The notes under the pieces were generated by a model that searched no databases, was not told the origin of the DNA, and saw only the letters and a list, made by a program, of their open reading frames with translations. The translations under genes and the position numbers were made by a program. From the NCBI GenBank assembly GCA_016124755.1, contig WGNA01000031.1:1-64000 (forward strand): a DNA stretch of 64,000 bases, written 5' to 3'. Below, piece by piece: positions 989-54,183 of this stretch. Position 1 is the stretch's first letter. Every line of letters begins with the position of its first letter. The stretch is from Bacteroidota bacterium. Lineage in GTDB: Bacteria > Bacteroidota > Bacteroidia > NS11-12g > UBA9320.

Positions 989-1969
989 CTAATGCGAGTC
1001 AAGGATAGTTGTATTCCGTGGAAGGACGTCTGGTTTTTTGGCAAAATTTGGAGTGCCCGATTTTTTAACATTAACATCAGCACTCTTTTCAACAGTTTTC
1101 TCACCATCCTCTTTTGAATAGGTCACACCAACGGTTACTTCTAAATCACCGCTATATTCATTCTGTTCTTCAGGTGCTGACTGTTCGCAACCTTCTTCAC
1201 AATTTACTGGTTCGACTCCTTCAGCATGTTCTTCCGCTATTTCAACTTCCTCAGGTTCTTCTTCAGAAGCTGTAGATTTAACATCCACATTTATCTCACC
1301 AGACACTTCTATCTTATTTGGTGTTAAATTTATTATAAAATTACTATTGATTGAAGCGTTGGCAGGTGTTAAACCGGGTGAATTTTCAACCGGGGTTCCT
1401 GTTTTAATACTAAACTGGAACTGGACACCATTAAACTTAACTTCGTTATAGGGACTAAATGTAGTTTTTAGCCGCACGCCTCCTAGTGTTTCAAAACTCG
1501 ATTTATCTTCTAAAATAGGGAAATTCATTGCCGTGTAACAAGTTAACTTAATTTGCTTTTTGCTATCCTTCCATGAAGACATCAGTGGAATTGTTACCCC
1601 TAGTCCATAAGAAATTGGGCTTTGTTCTCTTTCTCGTCCATCAACGTCTATAAATTTGATTGGACAATTCCCTGTAAATTGATAGGGAGAATACCATGGA
1701 TAAGTTCGGAATAAGGGATCAACACTTAAAAATCTGCCGATACGCGGATTAAAAATCCTGAACCCATAGTCACATTGGTTACCATTGTTACTAATCTCGT
1801 TGTCATCCTCTTTTCCATTAAACCCAAACCTGTACCCCCCCTCAGGTGCGGCATAACCCGTCTCGGTAATTCCCATCCCAAAAGGATAGTAGTACATCCA
1901 GCCAAGATCCCTATAGGGACATCGTTTTATGCCAATACTATTTGGTGAGAAATGCATCTTTAGCATCAA
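989..1969 (-). CDS. orphan RHS repeat-associated core domain fused to a variable C-terminal polymorphic-toxin domain (a fragment; the N-terminal RHS repeats are absent)
   Basis: The N-terminal ~110 aa (YYYPFGM...RFGFNGKEDDNEISNNGNQCDYGFRIFNPRIGRFLSVDPL...YSPYQFTGNCPIKFIDVDG) match the canonical RHS core ending (...RYxxPxxGRFxxxDP...DPxG). An unrelated 200-aa acidic-rich C-terminal domain follows. The gene is only 326 aa, whereas full RHS proteins exceed 1000 aa. Its stop overlaps the integrase gene. Confidence 0.6.
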   Translation of the reverse strand: MMLKMHFSPNSIGIKRCPYRDLGWMYYYPFGMGITETGYAAPEGGYRFGFNGKEDDNEISNNGNQCDYGFRIFNPRIGRFLSVDPLFRTYPWYSPYQFTGNCPIKFIDVDGREREQSPISYGLGVTIPLMSSWKDSKKQIKLTCYTAMNFPILEDKSSFETLGGVRLKTTFSPYNEVKFNGVQFQFSIKTGTPVENSPGLTPANASINSNFIINLTPNKIEVSGEINVDVKSTASEEEPEEVEIAEEHAEGVEPVNCEEGCEQSAPEEQNEYSGDLEVTVGVTYSKEDGEKTVEKSADVNVKKSGTPNFAKKPDVLPRNTTILDSH

Positions 1970-3024
1970 ATTACGGCTTTTTGGGTAAGCTTTTCGAACA
2001 TAGCATCGGTTTGTTGGTCGAGGCGGTGCTGGTTGTATTTTACGTATTTGTAGAATTCTGTACTTCCGGGGGTGTGTCCGCTAATTTTACGAACCGTTGT
2101 TTCATCCACTCCGAGATTAAGCATCGTTGTAATAGCGGTTCGTCGCATGGTGTGGGTGCTCACCAGATCACAAAAACGGTATTGCTTTCTGCACTTGTTT
2201 GGTGCTTGCTGAATAAACGGAATTCCTCTCTGGGTTCTGTACTTGGGTAAGTCGTAAGTCCAACCGGCTAATTCAGCCAACTGTTTAATCTGTTTGTTGA
2301 AGTTTCTGCGATCCGTTTTGCGAAAGAGCATTTTACCGCGTGTTTTATTGCGTTGTACAATGGCAACGGCATAAGCGGGTAACTTAATACGGGTAAACGT
2401 ATGTGTCTTTTGAGAAATGGTTTTCAGGTACACCGAGTTGTCGCTCTGCCATTCCAGATTTTCGTTTTTCAGATTTAGTAAATCACTTACCCTCAACCCC
2501 ACTGTACAACCGAACACAAACAGGTCTTTGGTTCTTTTCTGCAACGCGTTAAGCCGGGCTTCAAATATCTCGTCCGAGATCAGAAATTGCAATTGTTCCG
2601 GTTCCAGCGCGATAATCTGTATGTCTTCTTTCCACACATGAAAGTTCTGGTAGAATGGTCCTAAGGAAATTCCCTTGTGGTGATTTACCCATTTTAAAAA
2701 GGTCTTTAGCATTTTTATATTATGCCCCACATAGTTGTCGAAATGCCCCTGGTCGTCGAACAGAAAATTGGTGAACTGCAGATACAGTTTTTCGTAGTAT
2801 CGCTTTTCCTGCTCAAACAGTCGCTTGTTATTACCGATTGATTTAATCCGCAGTTCAAATCCGGTCTTTTCAACGAACAGAATAAGCAACCGCCGCACAT
2901 ACCGGTAGTTGTTTTTTGAATCGGCAGTCATTTTTCTTCCGCCTTTCAGCATTCGTTTGTTGCGGTTGGTTGCCATCAAAAACGAATCGAACAGGGAGAG
3001 CATGTCGTATTGGGTTGTTTTCAT
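1966..3024 (-). CDS. tyrosine-type site-specific recombinase/integrase
   Basis: The C-terminal catalytic region reads LRVSDLL...HTMRRTAITTMLNLGVDETTVRKISGHT...FYKY, fitting the R...HxxR...Y pattern of phage-integrase-family recombinases. It is 352 aa and overlaps the downstream RHS fragment by 4 nt. Confidence 0.8.
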   Translation of the reverse strand: MKTTQYDMLSLFDSFLMATNRNKRMLKGGRKMTADSKNNYRYVRRLLILFVEKTGFELRIKSIGNNKRLFEQEKRYYEKLYLQFTNFLFDDQGHFDNYVGHNIKMLKTFLKWVNHHKGISLGPFYQNFHVWKEDIQIIALEPEQLQFLISDEIFEARLNALQKRTKDLFVFGCTVGLRVSDLLNLKNENLEWQSDNSVYLKTISQKTHTFTRIKLPAYAVAIVQRNKTRGKMLFRKTDRRNFNKQIKQLAELAGWTYDLPKYRTQRGIPFIQQAPNKCRKQYRFCDLVSTHTMRRTAITTMLNLGVDETTVRKISGHTPGSTEFYKYVKYNQHRLDQQTDAMFEKLTQKAVI

Positions 3025-3183
3025 TCAATAAGAAATTTCGATGCATACAAATAGGATGTATGGATAATTTAAGGTGGTCATGGTTTTCCAGCATGGATGA
3101 ATAGAAAACGTTGACATAGGGATGGGTTTGTTTTATCAAGTAACTAACAAGAGCTCCGGATCTTCAGAACCAAAGTTGAACGA

Positions 3184-3222
3184 AATAAAAAAGAAAGGCT
3201 TCATTAATTAATGAAGCCTTTC
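3184..3222 (-). terminator. rho-independent terminator for the lipoprotein gene 3247..3804
   Basis: A perfect 13-bp inverted repeat, aaaggcttcatta/attaatgaagccttt, spans 3194-3221. On the minus strand it is followed by a T-run (plus strand aaaaaag at 3186-3192). Confidence 0.5.
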
Positions 3223-3246
3223 GATGAATAATTTTTTATTGGTAAA

Positions 3247-3804
3247 TTATTTTGATTCCCAGATAAGACGCCCTTTTTCGATAAGAGCAGTTGCCTTACC
3301 ATCACCACCATCAACGCAAGTCATATAACCTTTACCAAATTCGGAAATTAATTTTCCATCTACCATTTTAAGTACGTACGTGCCATTGGGTGTAGGAGGT
3401 TCATCGGTAGTCGTAAATTGGCAATAAGCCGGAGGAGGGCCTTCAGAATAGGAAAGTTGAACTTCAAATTCATCAAAGTCAAAATCCGTGGTGTACCATT
3501 TAGATATGACATAATCTCTAGGCAACAAAGTGTCCCCGGATTTTTCATGAACAATTATTACTTCAGGGTAAGTGTTCTTAAGACTTATTCTGAGCTCTTT
3601 TGTAGATGGGTTATTAACGATTTTCTTGCTTTTGAAATTTTTTCCTTCAAATCGCTCTCCATTCAGCACAATATATTCCTCCAGTGAGTCGGAGGTGTTG
3701 TTATTATTGTTATTGTTAGTTGTTGGTGTGGGGTCGTCGCCACAACTCCAAATCGAAAATCCAAGGAATAAAGTGAGAGCGGTGCTTAGAATATTTTTCT
3801 TCAT
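3247..3804 (-). CDS. hypothetical lipoprotein
   Basis: Signal peptide plus lipobox MKKNILSTALTLFLGFSIWSCGDD. There is a poly-Asn tract, and the terminator lies downstream. Confidence 0.6.
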   Translation of the reverse strand: MKKNILSTALTLFLGFSIWSCGDDPTPTTNNNNNNNTSDSLEEYIVLNGERFEGKNFKSKKIVNNPSTKELRISLKNTYPEVIIVHEKSGDTLLPRDYVISKWYTTDFDFDEFEVQLSYSEGPPPAYCQFTTTDEPPTPNGTYVLKMVDGKLISEFGKGYMTCVDGGDGKATALIEKGRLIWESK

Positions 3805-3888
3805 GGGATTAAATATTTGCGTGTTAAACTTTTGTCAGTCGGCAATATAGTTTGAAATTTGAATGATACGACCTAGATAAGAAAAATA

Positions 3889-4365
3889 ATGCAACCTCAA
3901 ATCAAAAAATCTAAAGAAATACAGTTAATCGGAATGCACCTGCAAATGAGTCTTTCCGAAAATCGCACACCCGAATTGTGGCGAAAGTTTATGGGTAAGA
4001 AGTCGGAAATTAAAAATGTGGAATCAACAGAAACGATTTCTATGTCGGTTTATCCGCAAGGTTATTTTAATGCGTTTAATCCGAATATGAAATTTGATAA
4101 ATGGGCTGCCATTCCGGTTTCATCTGTGGCATTTGTCCCCGATGAAATGAAGGCTGTTATTATTCCATCAGGAATGTACGCGGTTTTTAATTACAAAGGC
4201 TTGTCAACCGATCCTTCGATTTTTCGGTATATATTTAACACATGGCTTCCTGAATCAGATTACCAATTAGATAACCGGCCGCATTTTGAAATTCTGGGGG
4301 ATAAATACAAGAATAATGATGCGGAATCGGAGGAAGAGATTTGGATTCCGGTTGTGAAAAAGTAG
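3889..4365 (+). CDS. GyrI-like small-molecule-binding (AraC effector-binding domain) protein
   Basis: 158 aa. The beta-rich pattern (IQLIGMHLQMS...AVIIPSGMYAVFNYKG...PHFEILGDKY) is typical of GyrI/SbmC-like domains. Confidence 0.45.
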   Translation: MQPQIKKSKEIQLIGMHLQMSLSENRTPELWRKFMGKKSEIKNVESTETISMSVYPQGYFNAFNPNMKFDKWAAIPVSSVAFVPDEMKAVIIPSGMYAVFNYKGLSTDPSIFRYIFNTWLPESDYQLDNRPHFEILGDKYKNNDAESEEEIWIPVVKK

Positions 4366-4398: not shown

Positions 4399-5214
4399 TT
4401 GCCCGATATGGATTCTGAAATTAATTATCTCGAAGTCAACCGACAATCCTGGAACAACCGGACCGATACGCATATCGAATCTGAATTCTACGATGTTGAA
4501 GGTTTTAAAAACGGAAAAACTTCTTTAAACCCAATTGAACTCGAATTGTTAGGGGATGTGAGCGGAAAGAAAATCCTGCATTTGCAATGTCATTTCGGTC
4601 AGGATTCTATTTCGCTTGCTCGAATGGGCGCATCGGTTGTCGGCGTTGATCTTTCGGATATCGCCATCAACAGAGCAAAGGTTTTGGCACAATCGGAAAA
4701 TGCGGATGTTCGATTTATCTGCTGTGATATTTACCATCTGAAGGATAATTTAGACGAAAAATTCGATCTCGTTTTTACCAGTTACGGAACGATAGGCTGG
4801 TTACCGGATATGAATCGATGGGCTGAGGTTATTTCCCATTTTTTAAAACCCCAAGGGAAATTTGTTTTTGTGGAATTTCACCCGGTGGTATGGATGTTTA
4901 ATGATTCGTTTGATTCGGTTGGATATAATTATTTTAATTCAGGACCAATCATCGAGGAGGAAAACGGAACCTACGCGGATCGAGAGGCGGATATCAGTCA
5001 AAATTTTATTACCTGGAATCATTCCATCAGTGAAGTGATCAATGCGCTAATTCGAAATAATATGAATATTCGAAGCCTTGATGAATTTGATTATTCGCCC
5101 TATAACTGTTTTCGGGATACGGTAGAATCTGAACCGCAGAAGTTTCGGATAAAGCATTTGGAAAACATGATTCCGATGGTGTATTCGGTGGTGGCGGTGA
5201 AGATGGCGAATTAA
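4399..5214 (+). CDS. class I SAM-dependent methyltransferase
   Basis: Motif I ILHLQCHFGQDSISLARMGASVVGVDLS, then post-I D/E and motif II FDLVFTS. 271 aa. Confidence 0.75.
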   Translation: MPDMDSEINYLEVNRQSWNNRTDTHIESEFYDVEGFKNGKTSLNPIELELLGDVSGKKILHLQCHFGQDSISLARMGASVVGVDLSDIAINRAKVLAQSENADVRFICCDIYHLKDNLDEKFDLVFTSYGTIGWLPDMNRWAEVISHFLKPQGKFVFVEFHPVVWMFNDSFDSVGYNYFNSGPIIEEENGTYADREADISQNFITWNHSISEVINALIRNNMNIRSLDEFDYSPYNCFRDTVESEPQKFRIKHLENMIPMVYSVVAVKMAN

Positions 5215-5270
5215 TATTTTGAATAAGGAAGTTTCCAGACCAATACGGTATTTTACTGGTATTAATTTCT

Positions 5271-6310
5271 GTGGGGCTATAGCCACCCCTCCCCGAATGA
5301 AAGTTCGGGATCTTTTATTGGATCGGCAAAAATTTCGATGATATTAAGTGCTTATTTTCATTGAGATATTTGTATGAAAATATGTGCGGCTTGTTTCACG
5401 CAGAGACGCAGAAGATTGTGTGAATTGTTAAAGTTTAATTTGAGTTCGCAGAGGTTGCCCGAGAATGGAAAATTTGTTGTGAATGATTAGAGGCTATTTC
5501 CGCCGGGCAATTGCCACCCCTTACCCGGATGAAAGTTCGGTGTATTGAAATAACAAAACAAAAAACCAGACAATTTTAAACATTTACTTTTTTAAATGTA
5601 TTCCATTTTTCACGCAGAGTTCGCAGAGGACAACAACGAGCTTTAAGCTATACCGAATTATTAGATTTGAGAGGCGCAGATGTGTATGATGGAGAGTAAG
5701 TGGGTGCCATGTCTTAAAAAACATCTAATCATTATGCGGAACTCCCCTTAGCCAAATCCGTCATTGAGGGAGTAGAGAAAATTTTGTGGGCTATAGCCGC
5801 CCCTCCCCGGATGAAAGTTCGGGATCTTTTTAATGACCTGCAAAAACTCGGTTGAATTTAAATGCTTATTTCTGATTGATATAGTCGGAAAAAAATTGTG
5901 TAACTTGGTTCACGCAGAGGCGCAGGAGATGAGGAATGAGGAATTTAAATGTTTGGGTTATAACAGCTCACTGTTTTTGTTGAGGTGATGATGAGTTCGC
6001 AGAGTTGGCACTTAAACGTGCGGTTCTTACCTAATGAATTATTGAGTTGGATAGAACCTCATTTGGCCGACCACCCTCGCACCTTATGTTATGGAATTTA
6101 TTTCGCAGGTGTATTTCTGCGGGGCTATAGCCACCCCTCCCCGGATGAAAGTTAATCAGTTTGTGGTTTCGAAACAAATTAACCGCTTGAATTAAATGCT
6201 TATTTCTGAATGGGAAATGCCGGGCAATAGCCACCCCTCCCCGGATGAAAGATACAAATTCATTGCACATCAAACGCAACCGGATGATCAATTAAGTACT
6301 TAACCCAGAC
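5271..6310. repeat. mosaic intergenic repeat array, family A, cluster 1
   Basis: Five copies of the core GGCTATAGCCACCCCTCCCCGGATGAAAGTT. They are interleaved with the modules AAATGCTTATTTCT and TTCACGCAGAG(A/G)CGCAG. No ORF is supported. Confidence 0.8.
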
Positions 6311-6419
6311 ACCAACAAACTTTATAATTTTAATTCTTTATGCTCATAATAGATGTTTCTACGGGTGTAGATCATTTATCTTATTTTTAACTTTTTAATA
6401 AATGCTTATTGGTTTAAAT

Positions 6420-6765
6420 GCAAGTAAACCAACTTGTGGTTCACTTCCATTGTAGTAATAGAAAGAATAAAATGCATGGTGCGAAGCGGATCCTAAAACA
6501 AGAATAGGATCGCGTGGGTTGGCCGTCGGAAAGGTGGGATATCCACGGCGGGAATTTTTCATTTGGTAGAAAATCGGGAAAGTGCTTGACACCTCTTTCC
6601 CAGATTTTCAACAAATGATAAAGGGCGCTTACCGGCTTTCTTTCCGACTTGATTTTTTGCTTACTTTTTTATCAAGAAAAAAGTAAGAATATAAATTGTA
6701 AATTAATCCCCAACCAATTTACAATCTTGGTGTATCCATACGGAGAAGCATTTATTATTTTATTA
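6420..6765. repeat. family B repeat element, copy B1 (~340 bp)
   Basis: The same ~330-bp sequence recurs at 18215-18548 (same orientation) and inverted at 51760-51945, 53198-53505 and 54748-55040. It has a GC-rich core (GGATCGCGTGGGTGGGCCGTCGGAAAGGCGGGATAGCCCCGGCGGGAATTT) and an internal perfect hairpin, CTTACTTTTTTATCAAGAAAAAAGTAAG. Confidence 0.8.
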
Positions 6766-6788
6766 TACAAAAAAGAATTTTAAAGCTA

Positions 6789-7946
6789 TTAGCCCTCTTG
6801 TCCCGCCAACTTAATTCCCTGATTCCCTGCCCATGTACTAATGCTGTGTTTTGCAATAGCTGCAGCCATTAAATCCGGGAATAAATCGGGAGAACAACCA
6901 AAGACCGGTATTCCTAATTGTGCTAAAAAATCAGCATTAGAATGATCAAAAGAAGGATTTCCATTATCATCCAAAGCTAAAAGAGTTATTACCTGTACCC
7001 CGGAATTATTGAGTGCAGCAAAGCGCTTTCTCATTTCTTCCGTATCTCCTCCTTCGTATAAATCTGTAATTAAAAAGAGAATAGTATCCGTTGGTCTGCG
7101 AATAATCTGCTGACAATATTGAAGTGCCTGATTAATATCGGTTCCGCCTCCAAGCTGAACTCCAAATAACAGATCTACCGGATCTTTGAGATCTTCGGTA
7201 AGGTCGGCAACACTTGTATCAAATACCACCATGCGCGTATCCACCGCCGGAATAGAAGCGATCACCGCACCGAAAATACCGGAATACACAACGGATGCTC
7301 CCATAGAGCCGCTTTGATCAATACATAAAACGATGTCTCGAAGAGAACGACGTTTTTTCCCAAAACCGATTCGAGTTTCCGGAATAATGGTTTTGTAATC
7401 GGGTTGATAATGTTTCAGATTTTTCCGGATGGTTTCCGGCCAGTTTATTTCATTAAATCTGGGATTTCGGTTTCGAACAGATCGGTTAATACTTCCGGTT
7501 ATCGCCTGTCGGGTAGGGGATTCCAGCTTTCGAATTAATTCATCCACCACTTTTTTAATTACCATTCGGGCGGTGGCTTTTGTTTTTTGCGGAATCAATC
7601 TGCCCATGGTCATCAGATTGGCGACCAGATGAACATCCGGTACAACCGATTCCAGCATTTCCGGCTCGGTGAGCATTTGTTGAAGATTTAAACGACTGAG
7701 GGCATCCTTTTGTAATAATTGAACAGTTGATGCCGGAAAATATTCGCGTATATCGCCCAACCATCTTGCAACATTCGGAGAAGATGGGCCCAGTCCTCCT
7801 TTTCTGTCTGAATTATAAAGAGCTTCTAATGTTTTATCAATTCCGGATTCCAGTTTGTTCAATTCCATCGGAATTTCTGTCTGTACTTCTTTTCCGAGTA
7901 ATAACCGCCAGCGCTTTAATACTAATTCCTGCTCCTCTTTATTCAT
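6789..7946 (-). CDS. VWA (von Willebrand factor A) domain protein
   Basis: MIDAS motif VLCIDQSGSMGAS with downstream T and D residues. 385 aa. The start overlaps the stop of the upstream gene by 8 nt. Confidence 0.8.
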   Translation of the reverse strand: MNKEEQELVLKRWRLLLGKEVQTEIPMELNKLESGIDKTLEALYNSDRKGGLGPSSPNVARWLGDIREYFPASTVQLLQKDALSRLNLQQMLTEPEMLESVVPDVHLVANLMTMGRLIPQKTKATARMVIKKVVDELIRKLESPTRQAITGSINRSVRNRNPRFNEINWPETIRKNLKHYQPDYKTIIPETRIGFGKKRRSLRDIVLCIDQSGSMGASVVYSGIFGAVIASIPAVDTRMVVFDTSVADLTEDLKDPVDLLFGVQLGGGTDINQALQYCQQIIRRPTDTILFLITDLYEGGDTEEMRKRFAALNNSGVQVITLLALDDNGNPSFDHSNADFLAQLGIPVFGCSPDLFPDLMAAAIAKHSISTWAGNQGIKLAGQEG

Positions 7947-10206
7947 CGTTCTGCTTTTTGAGTTCTAACAATGATGCGTAAAATGGGATGATGAGCTGAG
8001 CACGTTTTTGGTCCCATCTCGTATCATCAGGTTCTGTTACACCGGATTGAATCTGTTGGAGTTTCAACGCTAACTGGCGCTTTTCTGCCGGAGAATAGGT
8101 CGAAACGGTTCTTCGTAATAATGGAATGATTTCCTGAAAAATTTGGTCGTTGAGGCCAATCAACCAGCGACTGATGATGTTTCTGATTACATCGTCGTAC
8201 AGTAAAATTGATGCACCGTCCATCAGAAATCCTTCAATCCAGGCAGCGGATGCCGAAGGTGGATTTGCAAGAGATAACGATCTGCCGAAAACGGATGCCG
8301 TTTCTTCTTCATCAAATTGATTTCGGTCGTAAAGGATCTTACAGCAGATGCCGTTCACCATTGGAGCACTCTGTTCAGAATCCGCAACTTTCTGAATGGT
8401 AGTAAACCAATCATCCGAAAATTCTTCCTCTTCCAACAACAAAACCGCATCGTGAACCTCGCGGATTCGGTTAGTGAGATTTAAGGCCTCTTCTTCATTA
8501 ATACCGTTGGGAGCATACTCCAGCCCCGGCAAAATCCGGTAAAAAACAGAACGCACAATAGAACTGATCATTACCAGATCCGTGTTTCGCACATTCCCGT
8601 ACCGTTTTATTCGAACCAATGGGGCAAAAGCTGCCATCAAAGCCGGAATATCTGACGACGATGCCGACAAATCATCGAGTCGTTGAAGCGCTGTTTCAAT
8701 TCCGGTTGTTAATTCAGTTGGAATCGCGTCTTCGATTAATGAACTGATTTCTGAAATGCTGTTGCAGTTCCCGGCGAGATGAATTAAAAATTGATTAGCC
8801 GCCAATTCAATAGTATTCCCCCAAATGGCTTTTTCAATTAATTCAATCACCATTTCCGGATCCCATTGAAGTGTCCATTCTTCTTTAAAAGTTCCTTTAC
8901 CGCGGCTGAATGCTTCATAAGCCCACTGAATTTTCAGAATCTTCAGCCGGTGGAATAGAATGCTTTTTTGGAGATCCGTTTCTTTTCGCAAATCAAGCGT
9001 AATGGATTTCGGAGTTTCCGACAGCTTTAACCGAAGTGATTTTACCGATTTTTCAAAATCCCGGTAAATGGGTGCCTGCGGTGTTCCTTCCGGTATTTCA
9101 CCGATCACAGAACCAACAATAAGATCGCGCCAGATGAGCTTCATCAGAACATCGTCACCCATGCACATCACGGCTATAGTGGATTCGATGTGCTCGTTAA
9201 GTCCCGGTTTGTTGTAATTGCGCAAAGCGGCCAGTGCATTCGACAACTTCACACTTTCAATTATGTGAGCTGATGAAACATCCGTTGCATTTTCGCGGAA
9301 CACAGCGGCCGTTTTGGAAAGCCAGTATGTTCCGTCATCATCCAGCATTTGCCACAGATAACGGTACCAGCCCGGAGACCGCACTCCCGCTCCGTACCCT
9401 GTGTGAAACGACATTCGGGTGTAGGTCCACGGAACCCAGGTCATTTCAATTTTCGTTTTCGGCAAACCCTTTAACAGGGAATTATCCCCTTTAAATTTTT
9501 TACTATCGGTTAATGCGGGAACGTGCCATGCTCCGCACACAACTACAATATTTTGGAATCCTTCCTTTTCGGTACTTTTCAGAATTTTCCGCATCCAGGC
9601 TTCCCGTAACGCATCGATTTTTTGCACATCCGGAAATTCCTCTCGCAATGCAGATATTACTTCAGTGATTCCATCAAAAACTTCCAGAGCTGTTTCTGCC
9701 CTTTCTACCTGATGTTCCCACCACAGATCTCCATCATCGAAACCGGTTAGCTTCGCCAGATATCCAAATGGATCCTCCTTAACCTGCTCTGAATCCTTAT
9801 CGTCTATCGTGTATCCTTCTATTTCCTGATCCGTTACCGTTACTGTTACTGTTACCGTTTCAGTTACCGTTTCAGTTACCGTCCCCGTCCCCGCCAACGC
9901 ATGATGCAACGGCAAATCCATGAACCGCACAGGAATATCTTTTTCCTGTGCGAACCGAATCGCATTCCACTCCGGAGAGTATTCTGTAAAAGGGTAGAAA
10001 TGTGCGTTTTTCGGATTATCAGTGGCATACGCCAGCATCGCAACCGGAGGCTTCATATTCGCATGGCTGAACCATTTGAGGAGGGTATCGCCTTCTGGCG
10101 GACCTTCAACCAGAATCACATCGGGATGTAATTCTTCCAACACATGTAAAACGTGTCTTGATGAACCAGGGCCATGGTGTCGGATACCTAAAACGTGAAC
10201 CGGCAT
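7939..10206 (-). CDS. DUF5682-like large protein of the MoxR/VWA cassette
   Basis: 755 aa. The N-terminus MPVHVLGIRHHGPGSSRHV is as I recall for DUF5682-family proteins. It contains an in-frame low-complexity TVTETVTETVTVTVTVT tract. Confidence 0.6.
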   Translation of the reverse strand: MPVHVLGIRHHGPGSSRHVLHVLEELHPDVILVEGPPEGDTLLKWFSHANMKPPVAMLAYATDNPKNAHFYPFTEYSPEWNAIRFAQEKDIPVRFMDLPLHHALAGTGTVTETVTETVTVTVTVTDQEIEGYTIDDKDSEQVKEDPFGYLAKLTGFDDGDLWWEHQVERAETALEVFDGITEVISALREEFPDVQKIDALREAWMRKILKSTEKEGFQNIVVVCGAWHVPALTDSKKFKGDNSLLKGLPKTKIEMTWVPWTYTRMSFHTGYGAGVRSPGWYRYLWQMLDDDGTYWLSKTAAVFRENATDVSSAHIIESVKLSNALAALRNYNKPGLNEHIESTIAVMCMGDDVLMKLIWRDLIVGSVIGEIPEGTPQAPIYRDFEKSVKSLRLKLSETPKSITLDLRKETDLQKSILFHRLKILKIQWAYEAFSRGKGTFKEEWTLQWDPEMVIELIEKAIWGNTIELAANQFLIHLAGNCNSISEISSLIEDAIPTELTTGIETALQRLDDLSASSSDIPALMAAFAPLVRIKRYGNVRNTDLVMISSIVRSVFYRILPGLEYAPNGINEEEALNLTNRIREVHDAVLLLEEEEFSDDWFTTIQKVADSEQSAPMVNGICCKILYDRNQFDEEETASVFGRSLSLANPPSASAAWIEGFLMDGASILLYDDVIRNIISRWLIGLNDQIFQEIIPLLRRTVSTYSPAEKRQLALKLQQIQSGVTEPDDTRWDQKRAQLIIPFYASLLELKKQNDE

Positions 10207-10212
10207 AAAGTT

Positions 10213-11295
10213 TTAAATCAAATCACGACAAGAGCGATACACATCTTTCCAGCCATCCCTGCTTTTCATAACGGTATCCATATATTCCTGAAAAACCACT
10301 TTATCCTGCACCGGATCTTTAACAATGGTTCCGATGATACCGCTTGCCAGATCATCTGCCTGAAGTTTACCGTCTCCAAAATGTTGTGATAATGCGAGCC
10401 CACTGTTCATAACCGAAATAGCCTCTGCGGTTGAAAGAGTGCCGCCGGGAGATTTCAGCTTGGTTTTTCCGTCGATGGTAACACCGTTCCGGAGTTCGCG
10501 GAAAATGGTTACAACTCTTTTTATTTCTTCTGTAAAAGATTTATCGGGTGTGAATTCGGAGGTTTTCAGAAATCCTGTAACACGCTGCCGGACAATTTCC
10601 ACTTCTTCTTCAATGGTGGCCGGAACTGGAAGAATTACCGTATTAAATCTTCTTTTTAATGCACTGGATAAGTCATTAACCCCTTTATCGCGGTTGTTGG
10701 CAGTTGCAATAACATTAAAACCTCTCGTTGCCTGCACTTGTGTGTTGAGTTCGGGAACCGGCAGCATTTTTTCGGAAAGAATGGTAATCAACGAATCCTG
10801 AACATCTGAACCGATACGGGTTAATTCCTCTACCCGAACAATTTTTCCATGTTTCATGGCTCGCATTACCGGTGTTTCAACCAATGCCCGTTCCGAGGGA
10901 CCTTCCGATAAAAGCAAAGCGTAATTCCATCCGTACCGAACCGCTTCTTCGCTGGTTCCGGCTGTTCCCTGAACCAAAAGTCCGGAGTCGCCGGTGATCG
11001 CTGCTGTTATGTGCTCCGACACCCATGACTTTGCAGTACCGGGAAGTCCGTACAGTAACAAAGCCCGGTCGGTTGTGAGGGTTGCAATGGCAATCTCCAT
11101 GAGTCTTTTATTACCGATGTATTTGGGCGTTATCTCAAATCCGCTTTTTAGTTTTCCTCCCATCAAATACGTTAGAACCGAAGAAGGTGACATCTGCCAG
11201 CCTTCCGGTTTTTTCCCGGAATCCGATTCTTTAATGGCATTTAATTCAGCTTCGAATTCCTTTTCTGCGGGTAGTCGTAATATGTTTTCAGACAT
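10213..11295 (-). CDS. MoxR-family AAA+ ATPase
   Basis: Walker A LLYGLPGTAKS, Walker B/sensor IVRVEEL...ATANNRD, and arginine finger SALKRRF. 360 aa. Confidence 0.85.
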   Translation of the reverse strand: MSENILRLPAEKEFEAELNAIKESDSGKKPEGWQMSPSSVLTYLMGGKLKSGFEITPKYIGNKRLMEIAIATLTTDRALLLYGLPGTAKSWVSEHITAAITGDSGLLVQGTAGTSEEAVRYGWNYALLLSEGPSERALVETPVMRAMKHGKIVRVEELTRIGSDVQDSLITILSEKMLPVPELNTQVQATRGFNVIATANNRDKGVNDLSSALKRRFNTVILPVPATIEEEVEIVRQRVTGFLKTSEFTPDKSFTEEIKRVVTIFRELRNGVTIDGKTKLKSPGGTLSTAEAISVMNSGLALSQHFGDGKLQADDLASGIIGTIVKDPVQDKVVFQEYMDTVMKSRDGWKDVYRSCRDLI

Positions 11296-11300
11296 AATAA

Positions 11301-12794
11301 TTAATTGAGAAGATTATTTGAATTGAGTTGCTTTTTAAGATTAATGATATCCAGCATTTCGTCTAAGCGTTTTATCCAGAAATGATTTTCCAATTTGGTG
11401 AATTCAGTTTTGTAGGATTCTAACATTCCTGTAATGGAAACCGGCAAATAGAGCGAGAGTTCACGGATTTTCGGGCTATCTACATTGTACGGATGTTCCA
11501 GTAATTGATTAAAAATAATTTCAGAAACACCCGGATCTATTACCGTATATTCACCATCTGTAAACTGATCTATTAATTCATTTATCTGCATGGATCTGGC
11601 TAGTTTCTGAGCCAGTTCTTTCTTTTCATAAACTGAGAAAAACGAAATCATTTCGCTACTTATCAAAACCTTTTCAGATTCGATCAGCGCTTTAGCCCAT
11701 TTTTTATTTTTAAAATGAGTTGCACTCATGGCGGCAAAAGGAGCCAGAAAATCAACATTCTCATGGCTTAATAATAGTTGAATTAACTCATACTCGGAAA
11801 TGCCGAGTGTTTGGGAAATTAATTCAGGATTTGTTAGGCCAATGATTTGACCGGCGATAAATACCGCATCTGTTAATTGCTTTATGTTCGATGTTTCCTC
11901 AACTCCGGCGTCGAGTAATATTTTTTCCGGTTTGCCGGGAAAAGCAAAATGGATAACCTTTTTCTTTTTAATTAACATTACCCGTTGCTCATCAATCTGA
12001 ATGGCTTTTTTTAAATAATTTAGACACGCTTTCGATATATCGGAGCCGGGAATAAAACACAAAGCGCGATATGCTGCATTACGTACTTTAATACTCCGAT
12101 CGGATAAACAGGATTCAAAAAATGGCTGATCATCAGAATTAATTTTCTGGCTCAGGGCATCAACTAAAAACTCCCGCATATCGGCGTTTTCGGCAGAAAA
12201 ACTTTCTGATAAAATGAGTCGTGCAGTGTTTGGGTCGTTCTTTAGTAATGATTTAAACCATTGTTTTCGAATCGCCGGAGAGCCGGTTTCCCAAATATTT
12301 TCATCCGAATCAGAAATACTTGATTTATTCGCCCAATCCGGATTAATACTTCGCAGCCATTTCCCGGTTTCGCCCTCGACATCCGACAATAATTGCGGAT
12401 CTATTTTATTTCTTTGATTAAAGTACATAAGATCTGAAACCAAAAATCCGGGTACAATTATTCCTCGTTTTCTGAAATTCGTCAAAAGATAAGAAACGAG
12501 GACGGCGTCTGATTCCTGAAGATATTTTTTGAAGTAATGCGTTATTTCAGCAGGGGCAATGGGTTTTGTCTCGTTTGGACAAACCGGGAATTCGCCTTTA
12601 ATTTCAACTCCGTTAAATCCGGCTTCGTTGATGGCAAATACAAGTGCAATGGATTTCAGAAACGCGTCTTCTGTATCGCTTTCATTTTCTGCGACAATCT
12701 GCAATAATTCCTTTGGTAAATCAAGTATACTCCCTCCGGCTCTGCTGGTTCCGAGAGTGGCGGTTTTGGTAATATTTGTTGTGTTAATTTTCAA
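11301..12794 (-). CDS. alpha-helical protein (DUF5691-like) of the MoxR/VWA cassette
   Basis: 497 aa with no catalytic motifs. Its position between the SWIM and MoxR genes matches the recurrent annotated neighbourhood. Confidence 0.45.
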   Translation of the reverse strand: MKINTTNITKTATLGTSRAGGSILDLPKELLQIVAENESDTEDAFLKSIALVFAINEAGFNGVEIKGEFPVCPNETKPIAPAEITHYFKKYLQESDAVLVSYLLTNFRKRGIIVPGFLVSDLMYFNQRNKIDPQLLSDVEGETGKWLRSINPDWANKSSISDSDENIWETGSPAIRKQWFKSLLKNDPNTARLILSESFSAENADMREFLVDALSQKINSDDQPFFESCLSDRSIKVRNAAYRALCFIPGSDISKACLNYLKKAIQIDEQRVMLIKKKKVIHFAFPGKPEKILLDAGVEETSNIKQLTDAVFIAGQIIGLTNPELISQTLGISEYELIQLLLSHENVDFLAPFAAMSATHFKNKKWAKALIESEKVLISSEMISFFSVYEKKELAQKLARSMQINELIDQFTDGEYTVIDPGVSEIIFNQLLEHPYNVDSPKIRELSLYLPVSITGMLESYKTEFTKLENHFWIKRLDEMLDIINLKKQLNSNNLLN

Positions 12795-14095
12795 AAGGAA
12801 TAATAAATTGAATTAAACCAAATCCCCAGAATCATGAATGTAGTTCTGTGAATACAGCCAAAAATGCTTGTTGGCTTGCCACCAGTTATTGATAATGCCT
12901 TCATAATTTCCAATTCCGGATTTATTAATTCAAGCCCAATATTATCGCTGTCCTTTAGCATCCATTTCTGATTGTGCCGAACAACGGAGACTGCTGAAAA
13001 AACAACCGGGAATTCGTTCCCGAAGGGTTGATTAATCCGGTAAGCTGTTTTCGCATCTAAAGCTAGGGTAATGCCGGAAAAACCGGATATGACGGTACAT
13101 CCGGATGAGGTTTTTCGTAAAGCGGAAGGAATAGCCCGGAGGTTTTGTTTGCCGGGATAAAAATGGACATCCGCCTCGATTGTGGTATTGGCGAGATAAT
13201 GTGTTTCCATGATTTGTCCGGGTGCAAAGAATTGAAGTAGTTGAGCGAACCGTTTATCTTGTTCACTATACATCCAGATTTTTTCCATCGTGAGTCGGTC
13301 CATCTCTGATTGCTGACAGGAAAGAACCATCCAGTTTCCTGTAATTGCATCCGTTTTTAATACTTCTTCTTTTGTGATATTCCAGCCGATCCACTGTTCG
13401 AGATCGCTGTGGCGTTCTTCATCCAGTACGTTTCGGTTTACATACGTTTCACTTAGCAGGTAAAGCGATGATGCCTGATACATTAATTCTTCCGGCCAGC
13501 TTTGTTGGCTGAAATCTATTTCATTGAATTGCCTGAGTCGGTTTGCTAATCCGCCAGCCTGAGCATCAACCATTCGGGAAATAATATTTGCATTAAACTG
13601 AAACCGGTTTTGTGGAATGGAAACGATGCCATTTCGAACGAGATCTTTCAACCAAAGTTGAAGTTCTTCGATACCGTTTCTGACTTTTTCTTCCCGTGAT
13701 TCAATTCGCTTTGCTTTGGCCTCTGGATCCACGGATTTTGATTCCGATGATTCCTTTTTTTCGGCACGTGAGTTTCGTTTATCGAGCCATTCCTGAACAT
13801 CTTCAGGATTTGGATTCTGGGTAAATTCTGATGTGTTTCGGAGTTGAAGGATCAGAATGGAGAGTCCGTGTTTACAGGGAAATTTTCGACTTGGGCACGA
13901 ACATTTAAAGGCGATGTTACCAAGATCAACCATTACCCGATACGGAAGTTTCCCGCTACCTTTACAATTTCCCCAGAGAGCGTTTTCACTTCTGCCCGTA
14001 TCAGACCAATTCGAAACAACCGCTAATTTCTCCCCGGCTTTCACAGAGGCTTCATCAGGGGCAAGTCGTGTTATTTCGTCGAGACTAAAAGACAT
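12791..14095 (-). CDS. SWIM zinc-finger protein
   Basis: CSCPSRKFPCKHGLSILI gives a CxCx(n)CxH SWIM signature. The probable start is MSFSLDEI at 14093-14095; the longer ORF up to 14200 is less likely. There is a 4-nt ATGA overlap with the downstream gene. Confidence 0.7.
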   Translation of the reverse strand: MSFSLDEITRLAPDEASVKAGEKLAVVSNWSDTGRSENALWGNCKGSGKLPYRVMVDLGNIAFKCSCPSRKFPCKHGLSILILQLRNTSEFTQNPNPEDVQEWLDKRNSRAEKKESSESKSVDPEAKAKRIESREEKVRNGIEELQLWLKDLVRNGIVSIPQNRFQFNANIISRMVDAQAGGLANRLRQFNEIDFSQQSWPEELMYQASSLYLLSETYVNRNVLDEERHSDLEQWIGWNITKEEVLKTDAITGNWMVLSCQQSEMDRLTMEKIWMYSEQDKRFAQLLQFFAPGQIMETHYLANTTIEADVHFYPGKQNLRAIPSALRKTSSGCTVISGFSGITLALDAKTAYRINQPFGNEFPVVFSAVSVVRHNQKWMLKDSDNIGLELINPELEIMKALSITGGKPTSIFGCIHRTTFMILGIWFNSIYYSF

Positions 14096-14304
14096 GGTAT
14101 CGGGGTAAAAATAAGAATTGAATTTCACGATTCTGAAAAGGAGCGAAAAACTTTTTATGCCCAATCGACAGTCGTTTTTGCGGGCATAATAATCAGACAA
14201 GCCTGCTGCATTTGTAATTTTTATTTTTAACTGTTGGGTCCAGACTTAACAAGAATGACCAAAGCGCGATTTGCAGAATTAATAAATCGCTACTTTCGAA
14301 ATAC

Positions 14305-14840: not shown

Positions 14841-15524
14841 ATGTTGAAAGATGACACCAGGAAATTTGTAACATACCAAAAATATAATTTTCCGGAAGAG
14901 GCAAGTCAGTTAATTGAGTTGCTTGAAGAGAATGAGATTACGTATGAATGGGAAAATACCTCGCCGACCTTTGACATAACTTTTTCGCTCAATACATCTC
15001 AAAATGAATTTCGGTTAAAAGTGAGAGCCGAAGACTTTTTGAAAATTGATGAGCTTTTAAAGGAAAGAGCACTTTCGAATTTGTCCGAAATTCCTGCGGA
15101 CTATTATCTCCGTGATTTTACAGATAAGGAACTTTTAGAATTGATTTCAAAAAAGGAGGAATGGTCTATCCAGGATGTAATTTGGGCACGGGAAATTTTG
15201 GAGAAAAGAGAAATTCCGATCAGTGATAAAATTGTTGAAACTCTTCAGGAAGTTCATGGAAGAGAATTGCGTGAACCGGAATCAGTGCCGGAAGGTGTAT
15301 TTCAAAGAAAGTTAATATTGGCTTTTTTCGGAAATCCGCTAAATATTTTGGAAGGATGGAGTTACTGGCAGGCATCTCAAACTGACCCATCGAGGCAGAC
15401 GGGAGAGAAGATGTATATTTATGATGCTAAAACCAGGGAATTGGGAAAGCGTTTGATGACCAGAAGTATATTCTTTTTATTTTTTTGGATGTTGGTTGTT
15501 CTTTATTGGTTGGTGCTTAATTGA
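14841..15524 (+). CDS. hypothetical protein with a C-terminal TM helix
   Basis: 227 aa. Hydrophobic C-terminus IFFLFFWMLVVLYWLVL. Coding potential is consistent. Confidence 0.5.
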   Translation: MLKDDTRKFVTYQKYNFPEEASQLIELLEENEITYEWENTSPTFDITFSLNTSQNEFRLKVRAEDFLKIDELLKERALSNLSEIPADYYLRDFTDKELLELISKKEEWSIQDVIWAREILEKREIPISDKIVETLQEVHGRELREPESVPEGVFQRKLILAFFGNPLNILEGWSYWQASQTDPSRQTGEKMYIYDAKTRELGKRLMTRSIFFLFFWMLVVLYWLVLN

Positions 15525-15544
15525 ATATTCGGATGGAGATTTTG

Positions 15545-16790
15545 GTAGGGCTGTGGCACCCTTGCTCGGATGAAAATTAATAGATTTGGAAATTTAAACA
15601 AACAAACGTGCAGAAAAATATACTTAATGTTGGATTGGAAATGCTGGGGTAAGAACCACCCCTCCCCGGATACAAGATAAGCGATTCCTGAATCGTAATC
15701 AAATATACGTGCAGAAATAAATGCTTAAAGTTGGTTCGAAAAAGCTGGGGCAATAGCCACCCCTCCCCGGATGAAAGTTCGGGATCTTTTATTGGATTGG
15801 CAAAAATTCGGATGATATTAAGTACTTATTTTCAATGAGATGTTTGTGTCTAAAAATGTGTGGATTGTTTCACGCAGAGACGCAGGAGAATGGGAAATAT
15901 GTTGTGAATGATTAGAGGCTATCTCAATACTTCTACGAATATTTGAATTGAAGGTGGGACACTATTTCCGCGGGGCAGTAGCTACCCCTCCCCGGATGAA
16001 AGTTACTCGATTAATTGGTCTGGAACAAATAAACGAGCTGAATTAAATGCTTAATGTTGTATAGAAAAGGTTTGGGTAAGAACCACCCCTCCCCGGATGA
16101 AAGTTCGGGAACTTTTATTGGATCGGCAAAAATTCGGATCATATTAAGTACTTATTTTCAATGAGATGTTTGTGTGTAAAAATGTGTGGATGGTTTCACG
16201 CAGAGAGGCAGGGGAATGGGTGAAATATGTTGTGAATGATTAGAGGCTATCTCAATACTTCTACGAATATTTGAATTGAAGGTGGGACACTATTTCTGCG
16301 GGGCAGTAGCTACCCCTCCCCGGATTAAAGTTACTCGATTAATTGGTCTGGAACAAATAAACGAGCTGAATTAAATGCTTAATGTTGTATAGAAAAGGTT
16401 TGGGTAAGAACCACCCCTCCCCGGATGAAAGTTCGGGATTCTTTGATTAGTTCCCAAATTAAAGAGCAGAAATAAGTGTTTATTTGATTTAAAGGTCAAT
16501 GAGTATTTCAAGTAGTTCACGCAGAAGCGCAGATCTTTGGTTCGTTTTGAATGCGAATATGCTATAGGAATATTCAGGTTTTGAAAATGCATCGATGGGA
16601 GTCGCGGAGAATGCGGTATGCCAGAAATCCAACCGATTATTCAAATGTTTGTTCTTGTAATTTCCGGCCGGGCAATAGCCACCCCTCCCCGAATGAAAGT
16701 TCGGGAATTGTTATCAAACATCAACTATCGGATACCCGGATAAGCACTTATTTTTGTTTGCACAACTTCAGTTCAGATGAAAGTTCAAAA
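15545..16790. repeat. mosaic intergenic repeat array, family A, cluster 2 (includes a ~340-bp near-identical tandem duplication)
   Basis: About 8 copies of the CCACCCCTCCCCGGATGAAAG core. The segment 15745-16085 is repeated almost exactly at 16085-16430. Confidence 0.8.
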
Positions 16791-16858
16791 CCAAATCGGC
16801 TACGGTAGTTGTACAGGAGACGGCCATTGAACATCCTTTTTAAACAACAACTGAGCAA

Positions 16859-17191
16859 ATGAACTTCTACGTGAATCAGCCGGAACCCAATCGAAGTTGT
16901 CTGCTCGCTTTGAAGGATTTAATTCTTCAATCGGACCCGGAAATGATCGAAACAATTAAATACGGAATGCCGTGTTTCTGTTTGGGTAAAAAAATAATAT
17001 GCTATTTGTGGACCGATAAAAAAACGCGTGAACCGTACATTCTTTTTGCGGATGGTAATAAAATGAAGCATCCCAAACTGGAAACCGGTGATCGTTTACG
17101 AATGAAAATTTATTGGGTAAATCCGAATGAAGATCTTCCTGTTGCGGAAATAAATGAAGTGTTGGTACTGGCAATAACCTTGGTGAGATAA
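16859..17191 (+). CDS. DUF1801 (YdhG-like) domain protein
   Basis: 110 aa with the pattern ...IKYGMPCFCLGKKIICYLW.... Confidence 0.55.
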   Translation: MNFYVNQPEPNRSCLLALKDLILQSDPEMIETIKYGMPCFCLGKKIICYLWTDKKTREPYILFADGNKMKHPKLETGDRLRMKIYWVNPNEDLPVAEINEVLVLAITLVR

Positions 17192-18194: not shown

Positions 18195-18214
18195 TATGTT
18201 TCTCCGGTTAATTA

Positions 18215-18548
18215 CACCAACTTGTGGATCACTTCCATTTAAGTATTAAAAAGAACAAAATGCATTGTGCGAAGCGGATCCTAAAACAAGAATAGGATCG
18301 CGTGGGTGGCCGTCGGAAAGGCGGGATAGCCCCTGGGGGAATTTCTTATTTGGTAGAAAATCGGGGAAAATGCTTGACACTTCTTTCCCCAGATTTTCAA
18401 CAAATGATAAAGGGAGCTTGGGCAGCTTTTTTTCGACTTGATTTTTTGCTTATTTTTTTATCAAGTAAAAAGTGAGAAGAAATGCGAATGTAAATCAATA
18501 CCAAACTGATTTACAATAATGGTGTATCCAAACGAACGAGCATTTTAT
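18215..18548. repeat. family B repeat element, copy B2
   Basis: About 85% identical to 6420-6765, including the hairpin CTTATTTTTTTATCAAGTAAAAAGTGAG. Confidence 0.8.
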
Positions 18549-26639: not shown

Positions 26640-27400
26640 GCTGATGATGCCGTGCGAAATGCTGCTTGGTTAAAATTACTCATCGGCATTCGTCTGTACG
26701 ATGAGATCCCGGAACGGTGTCTGAAAGTTTACACTGACAACTCGACTTGGATTTTATTCCTACACTAGATATCCTCGAGTTCGTCGGTGGGATGACGCTC
26801 CGTGGTGAACATTCCCCAATTTATGCTGACAATGCCATACATGAGTTACACTTAACCCATAAGTATTATCTGGCTTTCGTCAGTAATTCCCCAATTTCCG
26901 AATTCTCGAATTCCCCATTTCTTAATTCTTTTCATTTCTTTCATTGTTTAATTAAAAAGTGGGTTCCTTCGCTGCGCTCAGGATGACGGGGTTCTTTAGG
27001 CAATCAGAGGGATTCTTCGCTCTGCTCAGAATCCACATTCTCCAATTTATGCTGACAAAGCCATACGTGAGTTACACTGTACCCATAAGTATTATCTGGC
27101 TTTCGTCAGTAATTCCCGAATTCCCCAATTTATGCTGACAATGCCGTTCCAAAATCATTTTCTTCACCAATCACTCTCCAGGCATTCGTCAGTAATTCTT
27201 TTCATTTCTTTCATTCTTTAATTAAAAAGTGGGTTCCTTCGCTTCGCTTAGAAGGACGAGTATCTTCAAGCGTTACGAGGGATTCTTCGCTTTGCTCAGA
27301 ATCCAAATTCTCCCATTCCCGAATTCCCGAATTCCCCATTTCTTAATTCTTTTCATTTCTTTCATTCCTTAATTAATTTAAAAAGGTTTCCTCCCAACCC
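26640..27400. repeat. mosaic intergenic repeat array, family C, cluster 1
   Basis: Modules AATTTATGCTGACAATGCC / CATTCGTCAGTAAT (mutually complementary), TTCTTAATTCTTTTCATTTCTTTCATT, and a GGGGAAT/TGGAGAAT microsatellite. An 85-bp module GAGCGTCATCCCACCGACGAACTCGAGGATATCTGG... is also found at 49310-50100. Confidence 0.75.
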
Positions 27401-27920: not shown

Positions 27921-27992
27921 GCGGTGCTGAAGGGGCTCGAACCCTCAACCTTCCGATAGACAGTCGGATGCGCTACCATTGCGCCACAACAC
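27921..27992 (-). tRNA. tRNA-Asp (anticodon GTC)
   Basis: The reverse complement GGTGTTGTGGCGCAATGGTAGCGCATCCGACTGTCTATCGGAAGGTTGAGGGTTCGAGCCCCTTCAGCACCG folds as a cloverleaf. It has a 7-bp acceptor, D-arm GCGC/GCGC, anticodon loop CTGTCTA (GTC), and T-arm GAGGG-TTCGAGC-CCCTT. Confidence 0.85.
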
Positions 27993-54165: not shown

Positions 54166-54183
54166 AACGAACCCACAATTGAC

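Follow-up and report, generated by a model that had tools for sequence, protein, structure and literature searches.

We analysed a 64,000-nucleotide stretch of contig WGNA01000031.1 from a Bacteroidota bacterium, referred to throughout as the window, in which three arrays of a short modular repeat, here called family A, lie between unrelated genes. The contig belongs to a metagenome-assembled genome (MAG; locus tag GC181_, proteins MBI1308074.1 and MBI1308098.1), of which 68.8 kb were read: the window and 4.8 kb of source contig past its end. All three arrays occupy intergenic DNA poor in open reading frames (ORFs), at 5215-6788, 15525-16858 and 53142-54183. Array 1 (5264-6421, + strand) follows a Cass2/GyrI-like gene and a methyltransferase gene (4399-5214), with a convergent MoxR/AAA_5-VWA-DUF5682-DUF5691-SWIM operon downstream. 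Array 2 (15545-16858, +) fills the space between a TPM-domain gene and a 227-aa gene (14841-15524) on one side and a DUF1801 gene (16859-17191) and a 330-aa ORF on the other. Array 3 (53590-54165, -) follows a 229-aa gene (54184-54873, -) and has genes for a UPF0158 protein and a hexapeptide acetyltransferase downstream. Each array repeats a conserved core, always on the strand of its flanking genes, and in all three the first core begins 22-59 nt past a stop codon. The three upstream proteins are mutually unrelated, which rules out a paralogous gene family upstream of the arrays.

A fuzzy search of the window, allowing up to 5 errors, returned 16 copies of the family A core: five in array 1 (5274-6251, +), eight in array 2 (15547-16699, +) and three in array 3 (53643-54156, -). 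These are the numbers that a first-pass annotation of the same DNA had given (five, about eight, and three inverted). Chance does not account for them: the 31-mer singled out in that annotation has 9 matches with up to 3 mismatches and none in 100 dinucleotide shuffles, and the 18-mer CCCCTYMCCSRATGAAAG has 14 matches with up to 2 mismatches against 0.03 expected. Orientation is uniform inside each array (13 copies on the + strand, 3 on the - strand), and no solitary core copy occurs in the 68.8 kb. Start to start, successive cores are separated by 232, 282, 334 and 100 nt in array 1, by 100, 101, 225, 101, 227, 101 and 268 nt in array 2, and by 384 and 100 nt in array 3. The spacing is thus irregular, as had been noted, but its range is 100-384 nt rather than 95-335. 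This irregularity rules out a CRISPR (clustered regularly interspaced short palindromic repeats) array, as does the fact that the would-be spacers are themselves repeated modules.

Alignment of the 16 copies defines a conserved core of ~41 nt, (A/T)ATTTCYGYG-GGGCNNNNGCC-ACCCCTCCCCGGATGAAAG, within which CCACCCCTCCCCGGATGAAAG is the best-conserved segment. The core reaches further left than first drawn, since in many copies the ~10 nt (A/T)ATTTCYGYG precede GGGC. Its right edge is sharp and falls at GAAAG, with G|TT in 11 of the 16 copies. The palindrome GGCTATAGCC, previously highlighted as a feature of the core, is indeed present, but it is exact in only 6/16 copies and is the most variable part of the core, with the variants GGCAATAGCC, GGTAAGAACC, GGCAGTAGCT and GGCAATTGCC.

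Each core is followed by one of several interchangeable tails, and the resulting units come in two main sizes, S (~100 nt) and L (225-334 nt). L tails start with TTCGGGATCTTTTATT, carry TAAGYRCTTATTTT ~45 nt on and then TTCACGCAGAG-CGCAG, and sometimes include TGAATGATTAGAGGCTAT. S tails consist of a 70-nt linker with AAATGCTTA, giving units of 100 nt; V tails start with TTCGGTGTATTGAAATAAC; and E tails start with ATACAAATTC and run into a second repeat, family B. The resulting module maps differ among arrays: L-V-L-S-E in array 1 (with family B from ~6422), S-S-L-S-L-S-L'-L'' in array 2 and V-S-E in array 3. Nearly every combination of left flank (gene, S linker or L tail) and right flank (L, S, V or E) is found around the core, bearing out the mosaic make-up proposed in the first-pass annotation. 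Between L units, a 21-nt stretch of core is 90-100% identical, and the next 120 nt are just 52-86% identical.

The individual copies vary considerably in state. Array 1 opens with an L-type core at 5274-5303 (+), 59 nt past the stop codon at 5214, followed on the same strand by a degenerate V-type core at 5506-5535 (CCCCTTACCC), an L-type core at 5788-5817 whose GCCGCCCC variant is shared with the copy starting at 54127, an S-type core at 6122-6151 that is the exact 31-mer of the first-pass annotation, and, as the last of the array, an E-type core at 6222-6251 followed by ATACAAATTC. Array 2 (all +) begins 22 nt past the stop codon at 15524 with a degenerate S-type core at 15547-15576, and continues with an S-type core at 15647-15676 (GGGTAAGAACC variant, ending GATACAAG), an L-type core at 15748-15777, an S-type core at 15973-16002 (GGGCAGTAGCT variant) and an L-type core at 16074-16103 (GGGTAAGAACC variant). 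The next two, S type at 16301-16330 and L' type at 16402-16431, are recent duplicates of 15973-16002 and 16074-16103, respectively, and an L''-type core at 16670-16699 is the last before the DUF1801 gene. Array 3, on the - strand, holds a V-type core at 54127-54156, 27 nt past the stop codon at 54184-54186, a degenerate S-type core at 53743-53772 with a 4-nt deletion (CCCCTCAGATGAAAG), and an E-type core at 53643-53672.

The three tail modules that had been named alongside the core are likewise recurrent. Module TTCACGCAGAGRCGCAG, made of tandem CGCAGAG heptamers, occurs 6 times against 0.13 expected, at 5395-5411, 5909-5925, 15869-15885, 16195-16211 and 16516-16532 (all +, the last two with 1 mismatch) and at 53966-53982 (-). 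Module TGAATGATTAGAGGCTAT occurs 3 times against 0.06 expected (5480-5497, 15905-15922 and 16233-16250, all +). The third, which we call the second module (AAATGCTTATTTCT), has three exact occurrences, at 5860-5873 (+, ~45 nt past the core), 6194-6207 (+) and 53687-53700 (-), and eight with looser copies included, against 1.7 expected; looser forms (TAAGTRCTTATTTT) stand after nearly every core. The modules sit mainly in the arrays, and two of the three match nowhere outside them. Module TGAATGATTAGAGGCTAT carries stops in every frame: TGAATGATTAG, inside the L units at 5480-5490, 15905-15915 and 16233-16243, places stop codons in all three forward frames.

Part of the copy number traces to duplication. 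In array 2, Tandem Repeats Finder (TRF) identifies a 328-bp tandem duplication of an S+L pair (15700-16438, +; 2.3 copies, 93% matches), inside which 15894-16110 and 16222-16438 are 99% identical over 217 nt. Arrays 1 and 3 are related by inverted segmental duplication: 5904-6689 aligns with 53987-53212 over 794 nt (88.7% identity) and 5505-5653 with 54156-54010 over 149 nt (90%), the paralogy taking in the adjacent family B element. The two paralogues differ by an indel in which ~260 nt of array 1 are replaced by 29 unrelated or degenerate nt in array 3, and which is therefore not a clean insertion. Since array 3 is a ~89% inverted paralogue and array 2 a tandem duplication at 93-99%, the three clusters and 16 copies reduce to fewer independent events. 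Overall, tandem and segmental duplication multiply family A copies. The same inverted, non-coding paralogues (5505-6694 and 54160-53207; ~1.2 kb, ~89%) lie 47 kb apart, a pair through which the segment between them could be inverted.

One core does not follow its surroundings. Over 37 nt, the copy at 54127-54156 shows no difference (100% identity) from the one at 5785-5821, and its flank is paralogous not to that of its identical core but to that of the decayed core at 5506-5535. That an intact core of the 5788-5817 sequence should sit in a flank of the 5506-5535 type points to exchange from core to core. Recombination or gene conversion between cores would reshuffle flanks in this way and keep the core uniform, and judging from the alignment the conserved core would be either under constraint or homogenised by such exchange.

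We also considered whether the core acts as RNA. The hairpin CCGGA-TGAAAG-TTCGG suggested in the first-pass annotation exists, but it is not general to the core: in its full form, a 7-bp hairpin CCCGGAU-GAAA-GUUCGGG plus a U-run, it is complete in 6-8 of 16 copies, of L and V types. A shorter 4-bp stem is intact in 16/16 copies when pairs are counted on a structure that we specified, and its covariation amounts to a single double change, C:G to U:A, shared by three related copies. RNAalifold retains just a 3-bp stem, GGC/GCC. Taken with folds no more stable than shuffles and a poorly conserved palindrome, this makes the proposal of a structured RNA weak. A long-range helix around the core (UUUC...GAAA with GGGG...CCCC), visible by eye in some copies, was rejected as inconsistent and is not recovered by RNAalifold.

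Six L-type copies pass a terminator consensus scan, and the other ten copies do not; over the scanned region as a whole, terminator-like sites show no overall excess (16 against 13.2 in shuffles). The six hairpins, all on the + strand, lie at 5292-5309 (CCCGAAT-GAAA-GTTCGGG, then ATCTTTTATT; -10.5 kcal/mol), 5806-5823 (then ATCTTTTTAA), 15766-15783 (then ATCTTTTATT), 16092-16109 (then AACTTTTATT), 16420-16437 (then ATTCTTTGAT) and 16688-16705 (then AATTGTTATC, a weak U-run). Their folding energies are -10.0 to -10.5 kcal/mol for the sense strand and only -5.5 to -9.3 kcal/mol for the other, and the sense strand is favoured by ~4.5 kcal/mol in four of the six. This gene-sense advantage arises because two of the pairs are G:U; in two copies, a G to A change converts a hairpin G:U to A:U.

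Family A is non-coding. Small ORFs in the arrays lie in frames that differ between units and have no Pfam match, which rules out a conserved small ORF or type I toxin, and when translations of the core in four frames were combined into a chimeric query, none of 5.8 billion protein sequences matched it at E<=1. Nor does it belong to an Rfam family, in agreement with the first-pass annotation: across the whole window only tRNA-Asp (27922-27993) reaches gathering scores, and at E<=10 arrays 1 and 2 return chance-level matches only.

The repeat also appears restricted in distribution. In public-collection scans with the exact core, the 21-mer CYRCCCCTCCCCGRATGAAAG has only 7 unrelated single matches among 185,579 GTDB representative genomes and JGI metagenome contigs, all in GC-rich or coding contexts; the core 18-mer has one chance match in IMG/VR. 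A distant blastn search of an L+S unit against plasmids and phages found no match. With up to 4 mismatches allowed, the core is absent from the four loci of relatives compared (L011-L014, ~56 kb in all, ~20-kb syntenic), whose syntenic block lacks families A, B and C; the nearest relatives are distant, with a Tsp protease just 66% identical. The 4.8 kb of source contig past the window hold no family A, B or C sequence either.

We read family A, with moderate confidence, as a lineage-restricted, non-autonomous, non-coding modular intergenic repeat of the BOX/SPRITE-like kind. It is a new, previously undescribed family, but one of an ordinary bacterial sort, the small modular intergenic repeats; to our knowledge, few such families have been described in Bacteroidota. 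The unit would be a core with interchangeable S, L, V or E tails, set in arrays just past genes in sense orientation. Tandem and segmental duplication, as seen in the alignments above, multiply the copies, and recombination or gene conversion between cores would reassort the flanks and homogenise the core. Transcription of the upstream gene would run on into the array, which would then form a longer 3' end of its transcript. In L units, the core and the first bases of the tail are predicted to pair into the 7-bp, GNRA-capped hairpin followed by the U-run, which may serve to terminate the sense transcript or to stabilise it, and may shield nearby accessory genes from one another. For L-type cores, such a sense-strand role as terminator or stabiliser is suggested by their shape, by the strand asymmetry and by where they lie, and S and E units, which lack the hairpin, are probably passengers of duplication and recombination.

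The pneumococcal BOX elements (boxA-boxB(n)-boxC) are modular repeats that differ in how many modules stand in tandem (PMC3049150). Like them, family A is non-coding, intergenic and a composite of distinct short modules, whose tandem number differs between loci through gain and loss, with no encoded transposase (PMC3049150). BOX has fixed end modules A and C around a repeated B and a stable fold, whereas in family A the core itself is repeated, the tails vary and folds equal shuffles. SPRITE, an interspersed repeat with the look of a terminator, is enriched where coding sequences end, and family A L units resemble it in their terminator-like conserved part and in their location near such 3' ends (PMC3049150). 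SPRITE differs in its 18-bp duplex, long U-rich tract and single copies, against a 7-bp stem, a GAAA loop, 6-8 of 16 copies and direct-repeat arrays in family A. The likeness to BOX is one of architecture across phyla, with no sequence similarity expected. Cyanobacterial small dispersed repeats and STRR repeats are comparable in being very short, conserved modules nested in varied non-coding DNA, forming mosaic intergenic regions in genomes rich in repeats. They too belong to another phylum and have other sequences, and they number hundreds dispersed in both orientations.

Several observations weigh against this interpretation. Unit folds do not exceed shuffles in stability (z of +0.65 to -1.8), and the U-run is short and begins 2-3 nt past the stem. 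The same-strand argument draws on three loci, of which two are paralogues, and the first core after the gene is of L type only in array 1. Moreover, the 5' arm of the hairpin, CCCCGGATGAAAG, is equally conserved in copies unable to form the hairpin; conservation without a pairing partner implies a constraint on the core other than the hairpin. Sharp, coincident ends beside three unrelated genes hint at some site-directed process beyond plain duplication, and together with the conservation of CCCCGGATGAAAG they leave room for a trans-acting transposase, recombinase or RNA-binding factor.

The alternative that survives best, though we consider it unlikely, is a mobile element like a repetitive extragenic palindrome (REP) or a miniature inverted-repeat transposable element (MITE), with the core or unit moved in trans by a transposase, for example of the HUH/Y1 IS200/IS605-RAYT type. 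The discrete and coincident core edges (GAAAG| on the right, ~10 nt ahead of GGGC on the left) would fit such movement, as would the small hairpins inside the core and its occurrence beside the 3' ends of three unrelated genes, where the upstream flanks are unique. Family A also shares with MITEs a small size (units of 100-384 nt), non-coding content and multiple copies. The first-pass annotation had raised the MITE possibility, which fails because there are no terminal inverted repeats (TIRs) and no target-site duplications (TSDs): an inverted-repeat search of the three arrays found no arms that consistently bracket units, a candidate pair GTATTTC/GAAATGC holds in one S unit only (by fold and by eye), and no direct repeats stand at unit borders. 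HUH/Y1 IS200/IS605-RAYT-type enzymes work without terminal inverted repeats and leave the target site unduplicated, and the absence of TIRs and TSDs would then be the expected trace of HUH-type mobilisation. The window ORFs scanned against Pfam include no transposase domain, however, there is no solitary core in the 68.8 kb, and the sole indel between the array 1 and array 3 paralogues is not a clean insertion.

A REP-like identity, also proposed earlier, meets further difficulties. The REP, bacterial interspersed mosaic element (BIME) and REPIN sequences of Proteobacteria, which are short (20-40 nt), resemble family A in being GC-rich and extragenic, with hairpin potential, a post-gene position and mosaic clusters, and proposed roles of REPs include termination and mRNA stability (PMC2817692, PMC3116915, PMC3733652). 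CGTC-type REPs have been reported in Bacteroidetes (PMC3733652). REPs, by comparison, end in GTAG or CGTC, form strong palindromes, number hundreds in alternating or inverted pairs and have a RAYT gene. In family A neither core end carries GTAG/CTAC or CGTC/GACG (GTAG is internal only, in two GGGCAGTAGCT variants), the palindrome is weak, and the copies are all direct, never in alternating BIME or inverted REPIN pairs (PMC2817692, PMC3116915). The stable stem-loop of every REP/BIME copy is likewise missing, given a 4-bp stem in 16/16, the 7-bp hairpin in 6-8/16 and 3 pairs in RNAalifold. We therefore rejected REP/BIME for want of an end tag, alternation and a strong palindrome; the earlier proposal fails on orientation and end tags (PMC2817692, PMC3733652).

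Somewhat less likely again is a multi-copy small-RNA locus, in which each unit would have a promoter and form a separate gene that runs as far as the next L-type hairpin, and the C-rich core would serve as a seed for G-rich targets. The L-type hairpin and U-run do resemble a small-RNA terminator, the single-stranded, C-rich ACCCCUCCCC is the best-conserved part, the sense-strand G:U pairs favour a role as RNA, and the last unit holds a perfect -7 box (TATTTTTG, 16749-16756). Against this, the Bacteroidetes -7 box TAnnTTTG has 4 matches in 3.9 kb of arrays, at unrelated positions, so that a promoter in every unit was rejected, and sigma-70-type sites are not above shuffles. Half of the units lack a terminator, there is no Rfam family, folds do not exceed shuffles, and the sole covariation is the one double change in the 4-bp stem.

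We regard as improbable a third possibility, that the cores are recombination sites of an integron-like cassette system with crossover at GAAAG|TT. In its most specific form, to which we give equally little weight, the ~41-nt core would be the recognition and crossover site of a new, non-IntI cassette-shuffling system, with families A and B bounding gene and non-coding cassettes; this would account for the reassortment of flanks, co-orientation, post-stop position and cassette-like genes. As in integron attC arrays, the repeated site stands just past stop codons in gene-sense orientation, with small accessory genes between sites and a sharp right edge (G|TT in 11/16). Left and right flanks are freely reassorted. 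The neighbours are of cassette type (a Cass2 'integron-associated effector binding protein', the methyltransferase, DUF1801, UPF0158 and the hexapeptide acetyltransferase), and a tyrosine recombinase gene (1966-3024, -) is divergent from the block of Cass2, methyltransferase and array 1. That recombinase is not IntI-like, however: it has a Phage_integrase domain only, its best NCBIfam models are Xer-type at 20-37 bits against cut-offs of 220-335, which makes it neither IntI nor Xer by those cut-offs, and it matches no integron-integrase-specific model. No array has RYYYAAC...GTTRRRY pairs 45-150 nt apart on either strand, the boundary 7-mers (GTTCGGG, GTTAATC, GTTACTC and GATACAA) misfit GTTRRRY, and nothing resembles the long imperfect palindrome of attC (57-141 nt). 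An integron of the known kind is ruled out by these integrase and attC features. Many of the cassettes would moreover be non-coding stretches of 100 nt, and between arrays 1 and 2 lies a 7.4-kb operon encoded on the other strand. Homologous recombination between cores explains the shuffling equally well.

Finally, a metagenome-assembly artefact, with unit order and number or whole arrays made by chimeric joins, is very improbable. In its favour, the source is a MAG contig, and an independent Logan assembly of run SRR10063241, in which these genes recur, is interrupted wherever an A, B or C repeat occurs (contig L008 starts at 16677, inside the last core of array 2, L009 stops at 6712, and L016 and L010 run out in families B and C, respectively), leaving array interiors without independent confirmation. 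Such breaks, however, are expected of k-mer assembly from within-window repeats alone, the gene-to-core junctions of L008 match the window exactly, and the many private substitutions and unique flanking segments of the 16 copies are not the product of collapsed or chimeric repeats.

Returning to the BOX/SPRITE-like reading, family A is in the first place a catalogue entry from a poorly sampled Bacteroidota lineage, of modest interest absent a dedicated partner or a terminator function. It has a practical side, in that families A, B and C fragment short-read assemblies of this organism and so affect MAG binning and annotation in the lineage. It would be of more interest if core conservation (90-100% against 52-86% in the tails) reflected a trans-acting recombinase, transposase or RNA-binding protein, if L units were portable terminators or insulators between accessory genes, or if the ~1.2-kb inverted paralogues, 47 kb apart, drove chromosomal inversion.

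Family A is one of several repeats in the window: nine large intergenic regions, composed mostly of repeats, add up to 9,094 bp (14% of the window), which is unusually high for a bacterial genome. Family B is a ~330-nt non-coding repeat with five copies at 85-97% identity (6385-6700, +; 18195-18510, +; 53191-53518, -; 54737-55017, -; and 51763-51906, -, partial), co-oriented with upstream genes and located directly after arrays 1 and 3. Its start bears an AAATGYTT motif resembling the second module of family A, and three of its copies recur every ~1.55 kb between small genes at 51.7-55.0 kb. Four hairpins are predicted, among them one whose arms are 28 nt long and whose stem is AT-rich (CTTACTTTTTT/AAAAAAGTAAG), and we found no Rfam match and no covariation for the family. 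The mechanically assigned GTG start of the 229-aa ORF upstream of array 3 (54184-54873, -) overlaps the family B copy at 54737-55017, and the true start is therefore probably further downstream. Family C consists of octamer runs (GGGGAATT/AATTCCCC) with modules of ~70-150 nt (26657-27384, 29176-29918 and 49243-50057); it flanks the tRNA-Asp gene (27921-27993) and a WYL-domain gene, and follows an alpha-2-macroglobulin gene.

The first-pass annotation had placed all three clusters at boundaries of accessory modules, and comparison with a relative bears this out for array 3, which lies in a lineage-specific, variable insertion. In locus L012 of that relative, a 300-aa gene adjoins a HemN-like gene; their orthologues (52% and 51% identity) are ~21 kb apart in the source genome, with array 3 between them. 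The ~21-kb insertion spans 42739-43644 to beyond 64000 (3151-4149 of Logan contig L016), the partner there being the HemN-like radical-SAM gene, and contains the alpha-2-macroglobulin gene, an M43 peptidase gene, small accessory genes, families A, B and C, and a helicase island. The island (56219-63781, -, continuing past the window in L016) encodes a protein of 644 aa that has an MrfA Zn-binding domain, a DEAD/Helicase_C protein of 1201 aa and a domainless protein of 676-813 aa, a composition that could represent a defence or repair module.

Near the other arrays, the five-gene operon at 6789-14200 (-) encodes VWA_CoxE, DUF5682, AAA_5/MoxR, DUF5691 and SWIM zinc-finger proteins. The nearest DUF5682 homologue is only 52% identical, and named matches at 45-52% include Dyadobacter and Taibaiella; the operon looks horizontally acquired. 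At 989-3024 (-), the gene for the divergent, 352-aa tyrosine recombinase (1966-3024) overlaps an ORF with an RHS-repeat-associated core domain. Lastly, the perfect -7 box TATTTTTG at 16749-16756 falls in the second module of the last unit of array 2, with the start codon of DUF1801 ~100 nt downstream; other units have 1-2 mismatches at the homologous position, and in this one place a family A repeat may be donating a promoter to the DUF1801 gene.

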